DNA from: Escherichia coli
GTDB lineage: Bacteria; Pseudomonadota; Gammaproteobacteria; Enterobacterales; Enterobacteriaceae
Assembly: GCF_029227855.1 (NCBI RefSeq)
Contig: NZ_CP074356.1
Length of the DNA: 64,000 nucleotides
Reading direction: 5' to 3' (one strand)
The position numbers and the translations under genes are program-made. Positions 5,911-13,164 of the stretch are shown here, piece after piece. Within the stretch, counting starts at the first letter, position 1. Every line of letters starts with the position of its first letter. The notes beneath the pieces were generated by a model. It worked only from the letters and a program-made list of their open reading frames with translations. It did no database searches and was not told where the DNA came from.

Positions 5911-7050
5911 ATGAGCGCGGGAAGCCCAAAATTCACCGTTCGCCGCATTGCGGCTTTGTCACTGGTTTCGCTATGGCTGGCAGGCTGTTCTGACACTTCA
6001 AATCCACCGGCCCCGGTCAGCTCCGTTAATGGCAATGCGCCTGCAAATACCAATTCTGGTATGTTGATTACGCCGCCGCCGAAAATGGGGACGACGTCTA
6101 CAGCTCAGCAACCGCAAATTCAGCCGGTACAGCAGCCACAAATTCAGGCAACTCAACAACCGCAAATCCAGCCGGTGCAGCCAGTAGCTCAGCAGCCGGT
6201 ACAGATGGAAAACGGACGCATCGTCTATAACCGTCAGTATGGGAACATTCCGAAAGGCAGTTATAGCGGCAGTACCTATACCGTGAAAAAAGGCGACACA
6301 CTTTTCTATATCGCCTGGATTACTGGCAACGATTTCCGTGACCTTGCTCAGCGCAACAATATTCAGGCACCATACGCGCTGAACGTTGGTCAGACCTTGC
6401 AGGTGGGTAATGCTTCCGGTACGCCAATCACTGGCGGAAATGCCATTACCCAGGCCGACGCAGCAGAGCAAGGAGTTGTGATCAAGCCTGCACAAAATTC
6501 CACCGTTGCTGTTGCGTCGCAACCGACAATTACGTATTCTGAGTCTTCGGGTGAACAGAGTGCTAACAAAATGTTGCCGAACAACAAGCCAACTGCGACC
6601 ACGGTCACAGCGCCTGTAACGGTACCAACAGCAAGCACAACCGAGCCGACTGTCAGCAGTACATCAACCAGTACGCCTATCTCCACCTGGCGCTGGCCGA
6701 CTGAGGGCAAAGTGATCGAAACCTTTGGCGCTTCTGAGGGGGGCAACAAGGGGATTGATATCGCAGGCAGCAAAGGACAGGCAATTATCGCGACCGCAGA
6801 TGGCCGCGTTGTTTATGCCGGTAACGCGCTGCGCGGCTACGGTAATCTGATTATCATCAAACATAATGATGATTACCTGAGTGCCTACGCCCATAACGAC
6901 ACAATGCTGGTCCGGGAACAACAAGAAGTGAAGGCGGGGCAAAAAATAGCAACCATGGGTAGCACCGGAACCAGTTCAACACGCTTGCATTTTGAAATTC
7001 GTTACAAGGGGAAATCCGTAAACCCGCTGCGTTATTTGCCGCAGCGATAA
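5911..7050 (+). CDS. nlpD: Murein hydrolase activator lipoprotein NlpD (LysM plus LytM/M23 domains)
   Basis: Track ORF 379 aa; lipobox LAGCS; Q/P-rich repeat; C-terminal M23-like domain; lies directly upstream of rpoS. Confidence 0.95.
6106..6203 (+). repeat. Imperfect tandem ~27-bp coding repeats inside nlpD, encoding QQPQIQPVQ-type units
   Basis: Repeated cagcaaccgcaaattcagccggtacag-like units visible in the sequence. Confidence 0.7.
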
Positions 7051-7112: not shown

Positions 7113-8105
7113 ATGAGTCAGAATACGCTGAAAGTTCATGATTTAAATGAAGATGCGGAATTTGATGAGAACGGAGTTGAGGTTTTTGACGAAAAGGCCT
7201 TAGTAGAAGAGGAACCCAGTGATAACGATTTGGCCGAAGAGGAACTGTTATCGCAGGGAGCCACACAGCGTGTGCTGGACGCGACTCAGCTTTACCTTGG
7301 TGAGATTGGTTATTCACCACTGTTAACGGCCGAAGAAGAAGTTTATTTTGCGCGTCGCGCACTGCGTGGAGATGTTGCCTCCCGCCGCCGGATGATCGAG
7401 AGTAACTTGCGTCTGGTGGTAAAAATTGCCCGCCGTTATGGCAATCGTGGTCTGGCGTTGCTGGACCTGATCGAAGAGGGCAACCTGGGGCTGATCCGCG
7501 CGGTAGAGAAGTTTGACCCGGAACGTGGTTTCCGCTTCTCAACATACGCAACCTGGTGGATTCGCCAGACGATCGAACGGGCGATTATGAACCAAACCCG
7601 TACTATTCGTTTGCCTATTCACATCGTAAAGGAGCTGAACGTTTACCTGCGAACCGCACGCGAGTTGTCCCATAAACTGGACCACGAACCAAGTGCGGAA
7701 GAGATCGCAGAGCAACTGGATAAGCCAGTTGATGACGTCAGCCGTATGCTTCGTCTTAACGAGCGCATTACCTCGGTAGACACCCCGCTGGGTGGTGATT
7801 CCGAAAAAGCGTTGCTGGACATCCTGGCCGATGAAAAAGAGAACGGTCCGGAAGATACCACGCAAGATGACGATATGAAGCAGAGCATCGTCAAATGGCT
7901 GTTCGAGCTGAACGCCAAACAGCGTGAAGTACTGGCACGTCGATTCGGTTTGCTGGGGTACGAAGCGGCAACACTGGAAGATGTAGGTCGTGAAATTGGC
8001 CTCACCCGTGAACGTGTTCGCCAGATTCAGGTTGAAGGCCTGCGCCGTTTGCGCGAAATCCTGCAAACGCAGGGGCTGAATATCGAAGCGCTGTTCCGCG
8101 AGTAA
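7113..8105 (+). CDS. rpoS: RNA polymerase sigma factor RpoS (sigma-38)
   Basis: Track ORF 7077..8105; start set to the ATG encoding [21 protein letters not shown], giving 330 aa; sigma-70 family regions present. Confidence 0.95.
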
Positions 8106-8122
8106 GTAAGCATCTGTCAGAA

Positions 8123-8152
8123 AGGCCAGTCTCAAGCGAGGCTGGCCTTTTT
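8123..8152 (+). terminator. Rho-independent terminator of rpoS
   Basis: Hairpin aggccag...ctggcct followed by TTTTT, 18 nt after the rpoS stop. Confidence 0.8.
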
Positions 8153-8154
8153 GT

Positions 8155-8865
8155 TGTGCACAGAAAACCCCCAGCTAGGCTGGGGGTTCCGGAAAGCTTT
8201 CAGCTTTAAGCCAGTTATTAAAACCCCTTTTGATTTGTTAAAACACCTTGCGGTCTGGCAACTGCAAGTGTCAAACAAGAAATCAAAAGGGGGTCCCAAT
8301 GGGGAACGAAAAGAGCTTAGCGCACACCCGATGGAACTGTAAATATCACATAGTTTTTGCGCCAAAATACCGAAGACAGGTGTTCTACAGAGAGAAGCGT
8401 AGAGCAATAGGCAGTATTTTGAGAAAGCTGTGTGAGTGGAAAAGTGTACGGATTCTGGAAGCTGAATGCTGTGCAGATCATATCCATATGCTTGTGGAGA
8501 TCCCGCCCAAAATGAGCGTATCCGGCTTTATGGGATATCTGAAAGGGAAAAGCAGTCTGATGCTTTACGAGCAGTTTGGTGATTTGAAATTCAAATACAG
8601 GAACAGGGAGTTCTGGTGCAGAGGGTACTACGTCGATACGGTGGGTAAGAACACGGCGAAGATACAGGATTACATAAAGCACCAGCTTGAAGAGGATAAA
8701 ATGGGAGAGCAGTTATCGATTCCCTATCCGGGCAGCCCGTTTACGGGCCGTAAGTAACGAAGTTGGATGCAAATGTCAGATCGTGTGCGCCTGTTAGGGC
8801 GCGGCTGGTAAGAGAGCCTTATAGGCGCATTTGAAAAACCTCCGGCTATGCCGGAGGATATTTAT
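8155..8865 (+). mobile_element. IS200-family insertion sequence (IS200/IS605 family); boundaries approximate
   Basis: Intact 152-aa Y1 HUH transposase with the HxH motif; hairpin at the left end (8166..8188); imperfect stem-loop around the RBS (8226..8290); hairpin at the right end (8839..8857); overall size about 0.7 kb as expected for IS200. Confidence 0.8.
8299..8757 (+). CDS. tnpA: IS200/IS605-family transposase TnpA (Y1 HUH)
   Basis: Track ORF 8248..8757 trimmed to the ATG preceded by an AAAAGGGGG Shine-Dalgarno; product 152 aa, MGNEKSLAHTRWNCKYHIVFAPKYRR...HIHMLVEIPPK, typical IS200 TnpA. Confidence 0.9.
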   Translation: MGNEKSLAHTRWNCKYHIVFAPKYRRQVFYREKRRAIGSILRKLCEWKSVRILEAECCADHIHMLVEIPPKMSVSGFMGYLKGKSSLMLYEQFGDLKFKYRNREFWCRGYYVDTVGKNTAKIQDYIKHQLEEDKMGEQLSIPYPGSPFTGRK

Positions 8866-8897
8866 TTCTTTTGGTTGGGGAGCCGGTGTGTTTGTGG

Positions 8898-8930
8898 GCT
8901 GGATAAGCCGCGATAGCGTCTCATCCGGCA
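8898..8930. repeat. REP-like palindromic element
   Basis: gctggataagccgcgatagcgtctcatccggca resembles REP units (ggataagc...catccggc inverted arms). Confidence 0.5.
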
Positions 8931-8939
8931 ATTTGCACC

Positions 8940-9347
8940 CTATGTGTTCATCATCTTGCGCACTAGCTGCATAAACAGCTCCTGCTCTTCTCCACTCAAA
9001 CGCCCCAAAAATTCCTCATCCACGCTGTCACCTATCGGTATCGCCGCAGCAAGTATCTTTTCGCCTTCGGCAGTCAGCCAGACAAAGCGTCGCCGCTTGT
9101 CAGCGGCGTCATGTTCACGTCTGACTAAGCCACGATTTTCCATTCTTGCCAACATTTCTGCCAGCGTTGCTTTGGTGCTGACGGCTGCTTCTATCAGTGC
9201 CACCTGTTCGATACCAGGCTTATCAGCAATGGCGCGCATCACCGCGTACTGTGGTTTGGTCAGGTCAGGTAACTCGTGCTGCCAGCGGGCCGTGTGTTGC
9301 TGAAAAAGCTGTCGTAACTGATGGAACGCTTTATTTCGTAACGCCAT
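8940..9347 (-). CDS. hosA: MarR/SlyA-family transcriptional regulator (HosA-like)
   Basis: Track ORF 135 aa with a winged-helix MarR fold signature; divergent from the UbiX/UbiD-type operon. Confidence 0.8.
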   Translation of the reverse strand: MALRNKAFHQLRQLFQQHTARWQHELPDLTKPQYAVMRAIADKPGIEQVALIEAAVSTKATLAEMLARMENRGLVRREHDAADKRRRFVWLTAEGEKILAAAIPIGDSVDEEFLGRLSGEEQELFMQLVRKMMNT

Positions 9348-11524: not shown

Positions 11525-11761
11525 ATGATTTGTCCACGTTGTGCCGATGAACAGATTGAAGTGATGGCGAAATCGCCGGTAAAAGATGTCTGGACGGTCT
11601 ACCAGTGCCAGCATTGCCTCTATACCTGGCGCGATACCGAACCGCTACGCCGCACCAGCCGCGAACATTACCCGGAAGCGTTTCGTATGACGCAGAAAGA
11701 CATTGATGACGCGCCAATGGTGCCGAGCATTCCGCCGCTGCTGGCGGAAGGTAAGCGCTAA
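11525..11761 (+). CDS. ecdD: Small zinc-ribbon subunit (D) of the decarboxylase
   Basis: Track ORF 78 aa with CPRC...CQHC; third gene of the three-gene operon. Confidence 0.75.
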   Translation: MICPRCADEQIEVMAKSPVKDVWTVYQCQHCLYTWRDTEPLRRTSREHYPEAFRMTQKDIDDAPMVPSIPPLLAEGKR

Positions 11762-11766
11762 ATAAA

Positions 11767-11792
11767 AGGTCCGATGCCCATCGGACCTTTTT
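11767..11792. terminator. Bidirectional rho-independent terminator between convergent ecdD and ygbN
   Basis: aggtccgatg-ccc-atcggacct hairpin flanked by an A-run and a T-run. Confidence 0.75.
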
Positions 11793-11799
11793 ATTAAGG

Positions 11800-13164
11800 T
11801 CAAATTACCGCCCATACGCACCAGGTAATTAAGAATCCGGTAAAACCGAGAATGGTCGTTAACACTGTCCAGGTTTTCAGACCGTCTGCTACCGACAACC
11901 CCAGATATTTGGTCACAATCCAGAACCCTGAGTCATTAATATGTGACGCGCCAAGCCCACCAAAGCAGGCTGCCAGCGTCACCAATACGCACTGAATCGG
12001 ATTCAATCCCATCACCGCTTCTGAGAGTAACCCGCCGGTTGTCAGGATTGCTACGGTTGCTGACCCCTGCGATGCACGCAGCGCCAGTGAAATAATAAAT
12101 GCGGCTGGTAACAGAGGCAGGTCAATCATTTGTAGCATGTTGGCAAGGGCTTTGCCGACGCCCGATTCCACCAGCACTTTGCCAAATACCCCTCCAGCAC
12201 CAGTAACCAAAATCACTACCGCCGCGGTGGGAAGGGCTGAGCCCATAATGTCGCTGGTGTGTTGTAAGCTCCAGCCGCGACGTAAAGCCAATAACCAGAA
12301 TGCCAGCACCAGCGCAATCATTAGAGCTACCATTGGTGAGCCGATCAGCTGTAGCGTACCAAGCAGGGGATGCGAAGGCGGCATCAGTGTTGCGGAAACC
12401 GTACCCGCCATGATAATCGCGATAGGAATAACAATTAGCGAGGTGACCAGCGCGACGCCCGGTGGATTTATTTTATCGCTTAATTTTGTCGCGCCTTCCT
12501 CACTGGCCGGAGCCAGTTGCATCTGTTCCAGTACTTCCACCGACATCGCATATTGGCACTTATTGATTATTTTCGCTGCAAAGTAGCCAACAATCCCTAC
12601 GGGAATAGAAATCGCAATACCGATGATGGTTAGCCAGCCGATGTCTGCGTGGAGTAACCCCGCTGCGGCGACAGGGCCTGGATGCGGCGGTACCGCCACA
12701 TGAACAGTTAGCATGATTCCAGCGACAGGCAGGCCAAATTTGAGTGGCGATATTTTGGCAACCTTGGCAAAACCGTAAATGATTGGCGCAAGAATAATAA
12801 AGCCGACATCAAAGAAGACGGGAATACCGAGGAAGAACGCTGCCAGAGTCAGCGCAGCGATAGTTCGTTTGTCACCTAACTTGCGACTGAAATAATTAGC
12901 CAGTGACTCTGCACCACCAGAGTGTTCGATCATACGCCCCAGCATAGCGCCCAGACCAATAATAATAGTGACGGAACCAAGCACACCGCCCATCCCGGCG
13001 ATCATCACTTTACCCACTTCGCCCGCCGGTATACCCGCCGCAAGTGCGACTAACAGGCTGACGAGGAGCAGAGCAACGAATGGTTGTACCTTTGCCTTGA
13101 TGACCAGCAGCAACAGCATGATTACGCCAGTTAACGCAATGCATAACAATGTAATTGTGGACAT
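11800..13164 (-). CDS. ygbN: GntP-family permease YgbN
   Basis: Track ORF 454 aa, polytopic membrane protein of the GntP family. Confidence 0.9.
   Translation of the reverse strand: MSTITLLCIALTGVIMLLLLVIKAKVQPFVALLLVSLLVALAAGIPAGEVGKVMIAGMGGVLGSVTIIIGLGAMLGRMIEHSGGAESLANYFSRKLGDKRTIAALTLAAFFLGIPVFFDVGFIILAPIIYGFAKVAKISPLKFGLPVAGIMLTVHVAVPPHPGPVAAAGLLHADIGWLTIIGIAISIPVGIVGYFAAKIINKCQYAMSVEVLEQMQLAPASEEGATKLSDKINPPGVALVTSLIVIPIAIIMAGTVSATLMPPSHPLLGTLQLIGSPMVALMIALVLAFWLLALRRGWSLQHTSDIMGSALPTAAVVILVTGAGGVFGKVLVESGVGKALANMLQMIDLPLLPAAFIISLALRASQGSATVAILTTGGLLSEAVMGLNPIQCVLVTLAACFGGLGASHINDSGFWIVTKYLGLSVADGLKTWTVLTTILGFTGFLITWCVWAVI

Follow-up and report, generated by a model that had tools for sequence, protein, structure and literature searches.

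IS200 of Salmonella has been described as an insertion sequence of 707 bp in which nt 12-34 form a bidirectional terminator (PMC4513863) and which is reported to hardly move under laboratory conditions (PMC4513863; bioRxiv 10.1101/2024.06.26.600842). The paradigms of the IS200/IS605 family are IS608 (H. pylori) and ISDra2 (D. radiodurans), which share with IS200 the subterminal hairpins and a homologous Y1/HUH TnpA. Both of these elements insert 3′ of a specific short target, with no duplication and with a bias for the lagging-strand template (PMC5027513, PMC3201880, PMC2806898), and lagging-strand targeting has been described for the family (PMC5027513). Unlike IS200, both have a tnpB gene as well; they target TTAC and TTGAT, and a need for a neighboring hairpin is unreported. 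IS1541 of Yersinia pestis and Y. pseudotuberculosis differs from the element studied here in its host, its length (710 bp) and a far higher copy number; of 14 IS1541 sites, 8 reportedly had stem-loops resembling terminators, which Odaert et al. proposed in 1998 to be hot spots. Bacterial class C (IIC) group II introns are another kind of mobile element that inserts on the 3′ side of intrinsic terminator hairpins (mentioned in PMC7923331). They resemble IS200 in outcome only, since they consist of a ribozyme and a reverse transcriptase and belong to an unrelated family.

We analyzed a 64,000-nt stretch of E. coli DNA (hereafter the window; Table 1), in which an intact IS200-family element had been predicted downstream of rpoS. 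The predicted element carries a Y1_Tnp domain with the HUH motif and catalytic Tyr as well as subterminal hairpins, and all 711 nt of 8155-8865 were matched with 100% identity by copies at many other loci, which RefSeq labels IS200C (the isoform name is the RefSeq/PGAP label). We are highly confident that the best explanation overall is a full-length, apparently functional IS200 (IS200C) of the IS200/IS605 family, located in the T-tract of the rpoS terminator. Matches to its sequence were present in 3096 of 5426 complete E. coli genomes, at 1 to 35 places per genome and about 10,700 places in total, with many copies 100% identical, and the length was 711 bp in every copy measured. Because identical annotated 711-bp copies occur in many E. 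coli genomes, the element is an already known, ordinary intact insertion sequence. No second copy was found in the 64,000 nt of the window.

Comparison of empty with occupied sites gave a core of 8156-8866, and a TT ambiguity at the ends makes 8154-8864 and 8155-8865 equally valid; the span of 8155-8865 given in the original prediction is thus one of the valid alternatives. In the conventional numbering, nt 1 of this copy is 8155. The ends lack terminal inverted repeats, and the hairpins are subterminal at both of them. Clean 711-bp insertions after TTNTT, with no target-site duplication, were observed when occupied loci (L004, L006, L008) were compared with empty ones (L001, L003). The predicted IS200 termini were borne out by end-to-end alignment of both termini with Salmonella IS200F (92.3% nt identity) and Yersinia IS1541A (87.4% nt identity). 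By the present end definition the Salmonella element is also 711 bp long, and the 4-nt gap to the published length arises because the T-rich ends are assigned differently. It shares with the window copy the single 152-aa tnpA, the left-end terminator hairpin, the 5′UTR stem-loop and the right-end hairpin, whereas the left ends diverge in their first 8 nt (GTGCACAG in the window, GTCTATGG in Salmonella). IS1541 matches the window copy exactly in the end hairpins, the GAAAA tracts and the right-end tail.

Table 1. Features of the rpoS-IS200C region and its surroundings in the window
Feature	Position	Strand	Details and basis
rpoS coding sequence, intact	7113-8105	+	330 aa; stop codon 8103-8105; ORF, RefSeq annotation in relatives
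rpoS intrinsic terminator, intact	8121-8152	+	GC stem 8124-8133/8138-8147, loop AAGC, T-tract 8148-8152
GTT, extra nt between T-tract and IS core	8153-8155	+	Missing from the closest empty site among the matches listed
IS200C core	8156-8866	+	711 bp, GTGCACAG...TATTTATT; empty versus occupied sites
GAAAA, candidate guide sequence	8163-8167	+	Just 5′ of the left-end hairpin
Left-end subterminal hairpin	8166-8188	+	AACCCCCAGC-TAG-GCTGGGGGTT; sequence, DNA fold
STnc490 (Rfam RF01405), structured IS200 5′ region	8166-8289	+	146.1 bits (gathering score 56), E=4.7e-31, full model length
art200 antisense RNA, predicted, ~90 nt	8219-8308	-	Start at IS nt 153/154; by homology only (PMC4513863)
5′UTR stem-loop	8224-8292	+	Buries the Shine-Dalgarno; RNA fold -42.9 kcal/mol, z=-4.3
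tnpA	8299-8757	+	152-aa Y1 HUH transposase and stop; ORF translation
GAAAAA, candidate right guide sequence	8833-8838	+	Just 5′ of the right-end hairpin
Right-end subterminal hairpin	8839-8857	+	CCTCCGGC-TAT-GCCGGAGG; fold
Right-end tail	8858-8866	+	ATATTTATT; ends TTATT, the pentanucleotide class of the insertion target
Extra T between IS core and native CTTTTGG	8867	+	Empty-site comparison
MarR-family regulator gene	8940-9347	-	Opens the variable cassette; convergent with the IS
Second terminator (decarboxylase subunit D / ygbN, bidirectional)	11764-11797	+	Empty in the window; IS200C-occupied in other genomes (L005)

TnpA is the sole ORF of the core, and no tnpB-like ORF is present in 8156-8866. 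The predicted complete 152-aa Y1 transposase matched the Pfam domain Y1_Tnp (PF01797; E=4.4e-38, model positions 2-121 of 121) and the solved transposases 2EC2 (E=4e-23), ISHp608 TnpA 2A6M (E=4e-19) and ISDra2 TnpA 2XM3 (E=2e-16). Its HUH motif is H61-I-H63, aligned to the HIH of the solved homologues. Alignment to Y127 of the ISHp608 (IS608) TnpA identifies Y125 as the catalytic Tyr, and Y125-I-K-H-Q129 falls on the Y-I-E-E-Q helix of 2EC2. We looked for a frameshift and for loss of the HUH motif or of the catalytic Tyr in tnpA and saw none.

Folding located both end hairpins as predicted, and the stem-loop that had been proposed to occlude the ribosome-binding site (8226-8290) is contained within a slightly longer fold; together with the ORF, all lie at the predicted positions or at most 1-3 nt away. 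The end hairpins are alike in design, with a stem of 8-10 bp and a 3-nt loop, TAG on the left and TAT on the right, and the right one had a terminator-like score on both strands. The left-end hairpin and the 5′UTR stem-loop map onto nt 12-34 and 69-138 of IS200 (PMC4513863), and IS nt ~155-202, the region of the art200 promoter, are identical to Salmonella IS200F. The original prediction had stated that IS200 is self-repressed, in Salmonella also by an antisense RNA, and that this copy could be mobile yet quiet; the relevant sequence of the window is nearly identical to that of the Salmonella element, and art200 may be expressed from this copy. Transcription from rpoS would be stopped first by the rpoS terminator and then by the left-end terminator of IS200C, and translation of tnpA would be blocked by the 5′UTR stem-loop, Hfq and art200 (PMC4513863, PMC5435999). 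The right-end hairpin could stop transcription coming from the convergent MarR gene. Sub-threshold Rfam matches to Thr_leader (8095-8155), Ysr202 (8834-8874), naRNA4 (8897-8963) and SMAD5-AS1 were rejected as terminator or REP look-alikes.

The element had been placed just past the rpoS terminator, about 50 nt after rpoS. It begins 47-50 nt after the stop codon, and its insertion point is the T-tract of the terminator; the hairpin is untouched, and tnpA lies on the rpoS coding strand. A comparison with genomes lacking the element, proposed along with the prediction, provided this insertion point and the 711-bp core: empty sites in SJC33, O157 and CFSAN018748 read GGCTGGCCTTTTT(T) followed by CTTTTG, and their terminator hairpin is identical. 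The insertion probably leaves rpoS expression unaffected, because the hairpin is intact and the U content of the first 8 nt after the GC stem is unchanged (7/8 U with and without the element). A simple terminator scan called the rpoS terminator in an empty-site genome and missed it in the window, which we attribute to the tool's way of extending A/T stems; a small effect on termination is possible. The insertion might instead be functional, altering termination, 3′-end processing or mRNA stability of rpoS and hence being selected, as could be argued from the call lost from the consensus scan, from the replacement of the distal U-tract (UUUUUCUUUUGG to UUUUUGUUGUGC) and from the standing of rpoS as a frequent target of adaptive change. 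We consider this very improbable given the unchanged hairpin and U content and the rarity of the insertion, with IS200 at the rpoS terminator in 18 of the 5426 complete genomes. The same class of site is moreover common to 44 unrelated genes, and rpoS-specific selection is therefore not needed.

The 18 occupied genomes had at least four distinct junctions, after TTTTTGTT, TTTTTCTT, TTTTT and TTTTTATT (the last one behind the next hairpin, in a K-12-type backbone), and we thus regard the rpoS terminator as a recurrent target. Three different TnpA alleles were found among these copies. An IS200-family element between o454 and rpoS has also been reported in strain IMT13844 (PMC4209514), and the atpC terminator had two distinct IS200 junctions. 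The exact junction of the window occurred in 1 of the 5426 genomes, and its closest relatives among the matches listed have an empty rpoS site. The rare junction, the variable copy number, the identical copies and the several junctions indicate that IS200 movement in E. coli has been recent and repeated. By contrast, an element that is fixed and no longer moves, or that has been domesticated as a small-RNA gene (art200 / 5′tnpA), would agree with an IS200 transposition that is barely detectable and with the regulation of Salmonella host genes by IS200 RNAs (PMC4513863, PMC5435999, bioRxiv 10.1101/2024.06.26.600842), and the RNA region is the best-conserved part of the element between genera. 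This reading is very improbable in our view: besides the scattered occupancy and the many identical copies just described, which speak against it, the ORF and both ends of the window copy are intact. Its sequence suggests that this copy would still be capable of transposition.

We found that the left end lay directly after a GC-rich hairpin and TTNTT in 44 of 44 independent insertions of IS200, IS200C and IS1541. The set covered E. coli (two TnpA variants), Salmonella IS200F and Yersinia IS1541A, plus atpC, fadR, phoR and rpoS; for IS1541, the hairpin-plus-TTNTT junction was seen in 9/9 copies examined. The hairpins had energies of -10.3 to -24.8 kcal/mol (mean -17.3), the junctions were 0-7 nt from the hairpin foot, directly after TT, and all 44 were on the strand with the T-tract 5′ of the left end. 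T was present at -5, -2 and -1 in 36/36 junctions and at -4 in 34/36. The hairpin and T-rich test was passed by 0/44 control positions at 100 nt upstream, by 0/43 on the right flank and by ~1% of all window positions, and 12% of the 654 TTNTT sites of the window had a hairpin of -10 kcal/mol or better. A perfect-stem detector under-called the hairpins (23/36), and an RNAfold-based criterion was used instead; alone it passed 25% of TTNTT sites, and energy cut-offs were then applied. BLAST alignments at other loci reached 35 nt to the left of the junction; an element extending further left was ruled out, as these flanks are different terminators (atpC, fadR, phoR) that share an AAAGCC...GGCTTTTT design.

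Such positions could also result from selection only, if IS200 entered any T-rich site without recognizing the hairpin and only harmless copies survived. Insertions in genes or promoters would be counter-selected, and a preprint interprets a terminator located upstream of an insertion sequence as a setting that favors its persistence (bioRxiv 10.1101/2025.07.22.666184). We judge this unlikely as the sole cause. The nucleotide-level precision, the restriction to one strand and the repeated, independent strikes at the same terminators are at odds with it, and 88% of TTNTT sites have no such hairpin, many of them at equally neutral intergenic positions. Double-stranded DNA beside a single-stranded target also stimulates IS608 TnpA in vitro (PMC5027513). 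Part of the apparent hairpin requirement could still come from the loss of insertions at other places by selection and not from recognition of the hairpin by TnpA.

The mechanism that we favor is recognition of the terminator by TnpA. Elements of the IS200/IS605 family transpose in single-stranded form ('peel and paste'), catalyzed by the small Y1/HUH TnpA, which recognizes the left- and right-end subterminal hairpins. The target of IS200 would be a TTNTT that follows a GC-rich hairpin by a few nt, a structure that is an intrinsic terminator and also resembles the right end of the element itself (hairpin and ...TTATT). GAAAA does not vary among the E. coli, Salmonella and Yersinia elements, whereas nt 1-8 do; this sequence 5′ of each end hairpin may pair with the T-rich cleavage or target site, by analogy with the IS608 guide sequences (PMC3201880). 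The adjacent hairpin, or its double-stranded stem, may aid target capture. We infer both the target class (TTNTT beside a hairpin) and the guides of IS200, in contrast to the IS608 and ISDra2 paradigms. The cumulative GC skew of the + strand is positive and rises over the 64 kb, which for the window copy would make the parental + strand, on which tnpA lies, the lagging-strand template, the preferred substrate of this family.

The element had also been said to mark one edge of the strain-variable rpoS-mutS interval, which agrees with our comparison: K-12, cassette (O157-like) and B2 haplotypes diverge within ~12 nt of the T-tract of the rpoS terminator. The gene order in this strain is rpoS - IS200 - MarR - decarboxylase BCD - ygbN ... 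mutS. At the K-12-type rpoS-ygbN junction we found a 12-nt exact match to the left end of IS200, at a canonical target site. On the bottom strand this junction consists of the ygbN terminator hairpin, TTTTATT, GTGCACAGAAAA (the first 12 nt of IS200C) and the rpoS terminator hairpin, in that order. The match is missing from cassette-type strains and from three outgroup Escherichia species. This suggests that the K-12-type junction arose by an IS200-associated deletion of the MarR-decarboxylase cassette. An IS200 insertion would have been followed, in the ancestor of K-12-type strains, by a deletion of ~3-4 kb between two AGAAAA-plus-hairpin contexts, which would have taken with it the body of the element and the MarR-hydroxyarylic acid decarboxylase cassette. 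The intermediate would be CATCGGACCTTTTATTGTGCACAGAAAACCCCC, in which a cassette-type strain carries all or part of an IS200, in minus orientation, at its ygbN terminator; a minus-orientation IS200 after this terminator was found in 0/5426 genomes at 80% coverage. An exact-pattern scan for the scar in species-representative genomes gave 0 matches, and a scan of the rpoS terminator in such genomes gave 4 loci that are informative on polarity and do not reach the ygbN end. We rejected an origin by recombination between direct IS200 copies on either side of the cassette, because a whole IS200 would stay and the ygbN hairpin would go, unlike in K-12.

We consider the chances evenly balanced that both parts hold together, namely that the IS200 group seeks out terminators by their structure and that IS200 helped to shape the rpoS-mutS polymorphism. 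TnpA would then integrate almost only at TTNTT sites that follow, within a few nt, a GC-rich hairpin mimicking the right end, making the terminators of rpoS, decarboxylase D/ygbN and atpC hot spots. By itself, the element of the window is of little consequence, a textbook insertion sequence that is probably neutral for rpoS. What our analysis adds to the known element is the insertion point in the T-tract, the recurrence at the rpoS site and the rule of hairpin plus TTNTT at all 44 junctions. If virtually every insertion of IS200, IS200C and IS1541 falls a few nt after an intrinsic terminator and on the terminator's own strand, their landing sites become predictable, and IS200 TnpA would gain a testable target rule of hairpin plus TTNTT with GAAAA guides. 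There would also be a structural reason for the quiescence of IS200, each copy being shielded by the host terminator and by its own. The K-12 left-end scar, in turn, would be the molecular origin of the short rpoS-mutS interval, a classic strain-typing polymorphism.

The window copy differs from Salmonella IS200 and from other E. coli IS200C copies in its four extra flanking nucleotides. Against the empty site of CFSAN018748 (GGCTGGCCTTTTT joined to CTTTTGGTTGGGG), the closest among the matches listed, it has 715 extra nt, which are GTT, the 711-bp core and T. These 4 nt (GTT...T) are unaccounted for by a canonical precise insertion. We tentatively propose that they may have been brought from an earlier donor site by cleavage at a neighboring T-rich pentanucleotide, rather than stemming from a point mutation or an ancestral variant. 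An unsampled empty-site allele TTTTTGTTTCTTTTGG could instead explain the extra nucleotides, although none was present among the best 40 matches. Consistent with carry-over from a donor, GTT and T are missing from the closest empty site listed, and the left flanks of other copies end in TTTTTTGTT, where the upstream TTTTT would offer an alternative cleavage site. One of these is the copy at the fadR terminator, which occurs in 32 genomes; CFSAN018748 and ST2747, the nearest relatives with an empty rpoS site among the matches listed, are two of them.

The element just past the rpoS terminator is an intact copy of IS200C. Copies 100% identical to its 711 nt (8155-8865) were found at many further sites in chromosomes and plasmids of E. 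coli, and RefSeq annotates them as IS200C. Matches were present in 3096 of the 5426 complete E. coli genomes searched, at up to 35 places per genome. The element was 92.3% identical to Salmonella IS200F and 87.4% identical to Yersinia IS1541A, with the termini aligned end to end in both cases; this supports the original prediction of an intact IS200-family element. The 152-aa Y1 transposase, the two end hairpins and the stem-loop occluding the ribosome binding site, all proposed from the sequence, were recovered by ORF, Pfam, folding and Rfam analyses (see table). No second IS200 copy was found within the window.

Features of the rpoS region and of the IS200C copy (window coordinates)
Feature	Coordinates	Strand	Details
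nlpD	5911-7050		sequence/ORF
rpoS	7113-8105	+	stop codon 8103-8105
rpoS intrinsic terminator, strong	GC stem 8124-8133 / 8138-8147; T-tract 8148-8152		loop AAGC; sequence and fold
Left-end hairpin	8166-8188		AACCCCCAGC-TAG-GCTGGGGGTT; folds as described
5'UTR stem-loop	8224-8292		Shine-Dalgarno in 3' arm
tnpA	8299-8757		152 aa
Right-end hairpin	8839-8857		CCTCCGGC-TAT-GCCGGAGG; folds as described
REP-like palindrome	8897-8963	-	just downstream of MarR gene
MarR-family gene	8940-9347	-	downstream of IS200C
Decarboxylase-D/ygbN bidirectional terminator	11764-11797		empty here

Pfam Y1_Tnp matched TnpA across the whole model (E=4.4e-38). TnpA could be aligned with the solved IS200-family transposases 2EC2, ISHp608 TnpA (2A6M) and ISDra2 TnpA (2XM3), which places the HUH motif at H61-I-H63 and the catalytic helix at Y125-I-K-H-Q129. 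An RNA fold begun at the reported tnpA start (IS nt about 40, window 8194) gave the long 5'UTR stem-loop at -42.9 kcal/mol (z=-4.3). With 8155 as nt 1, the left-end hairpin and this stem-loop coincide exactly with nt 12-34 and 69-138 of Salmonella IS200 (PMC4513863). Rfam RF01405 (STnc490) matched 8166-8289 with 146 bits (gathering score 56). It is the tnpA-sense strand that matches, left-end terminator included; STnc490/art200 is described in the literature as antisense to the 5'UTR, and in effect it is the structured sense region that the model detects.

Empty sites were sought in E. coli genomes with the two flanks joined as query, and they read GGCTGGCC-TTTTT(T)-CTTTTG (SJC33, O157:H7, CFSAN018748). 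Clean occupied/empty pairs from other strains defined a 711-bp unit, GTGCACAG...TATTTATT, at window 8156-8866. A two-T ambiguity makes 8155-8865, the ends first proposed and the conventional numbering, equally valid. IS200C was inserted into the T-tract of the rpoS terminator, and no target duplication was made. The length of 707 bp given in the literature (PMC4513863) differs from ours only in the assignment of the T-rich ends. Compared with its closest empty-site relative among the matches listed, the window has 715 extra nucleotides: GTT (8153-8155), the core and a T (8867). The GTT and T are possibly donor flank carried over by cleavage at an adjoining T-rich pentanucleotide, for example from a copy at the fadR terminator. 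Copies at the fadR terminator with the flank ...TTTTTTGTT/IS occur in 32 genomes, among them the nearest empty-site relatives at rpoS among the matches listed.

The insertion left the rpoS hairpin untouched, and seven of the first 8 nt past the GC stem are U with or without the element; an effect on rpoS therefore seems unlikely from the sequence. A consensus terminator scan called the rpoS terminator in the empty-site genome only and not in the window, a discrepancy that we attribute to the tool's extension of A/T stems. Nor is selection of the insertion for an effect on rpoS needed as an explanation, because dozens of unrelated genes have the same class of IS200 site.

A query across the left junction showed that 18 of the 5426 genomes have IS200 at the rpoS terminator, and only one of these (JNEC-KY178) had the junction of the window. 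Others were TTTTTCTT/IS/TTGT (MB53, JNE120442), TTTTT/IS/CTTTTG (Z1323HEC0462) and TTTTT/IS/TCTTTTG (Z0117EC0005 and relatives). LR-58-1, with a K-12-type backbone (an rpoS-ygbN junction), had GGACCTTTTTATT/IS/AAGGTC past the next hairpin. The copies at the rpoS terminator share one orientation and carry three TnpA alleles, so that, together with the differing junctions, several independent insertion events must be accepted. That the element is a dead relic is contradicted by these repeated independent insertions, by its strain-specific sites and by its many identical copies. An IS200-family element between o454 (ygbN) and rpoS has been reported in strain IMT13844 (PMC4209514).

Beyond the MarR-family gene follow, in the order read on one closely matching genome, hydroxyarylic acid decarboxylase subunits B, C and D, the ygbN-to-pphB block and mutS. 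The same interval has a second hot spot, the decarboxylase-D/ygbN terminator: at least nine genomes with this MarR-decarboxylase cassette (cassette-type) and the K-12-type LR-58-1 and B19374 carry IS200C there, in + orientation and following GGACCTTTTTATT. The atp operon terminator, at the 3' end of atpC, is also hit recurrently, in two strains at different T-tract positions (TTTTTTTTT/ and TTTTTTT/). In E. coli and in Salmonella (one locus each), two adjacent Bax1-I family genes have IS200 past the terminator that separates them, either an orthologous site struck twice or a very old insertion.

To sample places blind to their flanks, contigs were looked up by TnpA for the window allele, a second E. 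coli allele, Salmonella IS200F and Yersinia IS1541A, with ten distinct places each. Most had the end of a co-oriented gene about 40-130 nt upstream of the element. A hairpin with a T-rich tail lay 0-7 nt before the left end at 44 of 44 independent junctions from these and other fetched sites (-10.3 to -24.8 kcal/mol, mean -17.3), at 0 of 44 positions 100 nt further upstream and at 0 of 43 right flanks; about 1% of all window positions pass the same test. The pentanucleotide before the element (n=36) was TTTTT in 26 cases, TTATT in six, and TTCTT, TTGTT, TAATT and TACTT in one each, with T at positions -5, -2 and -1 in every junction. The window contains 654 TTNTT sites, of which only 12% are accompanied by a hairpin with an energy of -10 kcal/mol or lower; the pattern therefore cannot be put down to T-richness by itself. 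Nor is the association with terminators likely to be due to selection alone, since it is precise to the nucleotide, keeps to one strand and recurs. Three of the 40 sampled copies are truncated: they adjoin other insertion sequences (IS4-like, IS3-like), and no left end could be recognised in them.

Terminator-like stem-loops at IS1541 sites were reportedly noted by Odaert et al. in 1998 and proposed as hot spots. In Yersinia, IS1541 has been located between pheL and pheA, that is, past the attenuator (PMC3082878). IS200, its ends, its regulation and the family mechanism are well described, and with these earlier hot spots the finding is already known. Relative to those accounts, the 44/44 rule, with its pentanucleotide defined, and the hot spot at rpoS are a refinement and not a new kind of thing.

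According to published work on the family, the subterminal hairpins are bound by TnpA dimers, which release one strand as a circle; this is integrated 3' of a short target that base-pairs with a guide beside the left-end hairpin, preferably on the lagging-strand template (PMC3201880, PMC3597680, PMC5027513, PMC2806898). By GC skew, the IS200C strand is the lagging-strand template. An invariant GAAAA(A) precedes both end hairpins, and the left end differs between genera in its first 8 nt; the GAAAA tract would be the IS200 guide and TTNTT its target. The right end is a hairpin followed by ATATTTATT, the same design as the target sites. The neighbouring hairpin may aid target capture, either as a mimic of the element's right end or because double-stranded DNA beside the single-stranded target stimulates TnpA, as with IS608 (PMC5027513).

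Read-through from rpoS would be kept out twice, by the host terminator and by the element's own left-end terminator, which in Salmonella halts about 85% of incoming transcripts (PMC5435999). The right-end hairpin has a terminator score on both strands and could shield the copy from the convergent MarR gene. Translation of tnpA is blocked by the 5'UTR stem-loop, Hfq and the antisense RNA art200 (PMC4513863), and the window copy is probably blocked likewise, with a predicted art200: IS nt about 155-202, directly upstream of the mapped art200 start and the expected promoter stretch, are identical to the Salmonella element.

As originally predicted, the element marks an edge of the variable rpoS-mutS interval, whose three main haplotypes part no more than about 12 nt from the rpoS T-tract. 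Across 1942 genomes the K-12-type junction shows no variation; on the bottom strand (MG1655, 690-760 of the fetched locus L057) it reads GGTCCGATGGGCATCGGACC-TTTTATT/GTGCACAGAAAA-GGCCAGCC... (compare window 8140-8167 and 11755-11800). In order, these are the hairpin of the ygbN terminator, TTATT as a canonical target, exactly IS200C nt 1-12 and then the rpoS terminator hairpin. In cassette-type strains this position is taken by TAGCGC, the end of subunit D, and the 12-nt match is absent. Past the rpoS terminator, E. albertii, E. whittamii and Escherichia sp. E1V33 are all cassette-type, which makes the K-12 type the derived one. Chance alone would give GTGCACAG about 2.4 times in 128 kb, and would place it exactly at a canonical junction with a probability of about 1e-4. 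The match may be the scar of an IS200-associated cassette deletion. In the simplest reading, whose chances we consider about even, IS200 inserted past the ygbN terminator, and a deletion between two AGAAAA-plus-hairpin contexts then took the element body and the cassette. The orientation needed is the one disfavoured by the replication bias, and a surviving intermediate was not found in the 5426 genomes. The IS200C copy itself is an ordinary and already known element.

The REP-like palindrome gave a sub-threshold naRNA4 match (27 bits; gathering score 59.5). Between nlpD and rpoS, JNEC-KY178 carries an IS1A in the promoter region of rpoS (fetched loci L002 and L051; 5906-6603 of L051), which the window lacks. 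In E. coli SCPM-O-B-8794 the rpoS terminator (TTTTTCTTTTGTTTG) is almost directly joined to the start of decarboxylase subunit D, another cassette deletion variant, without MarR and subunits B and C.
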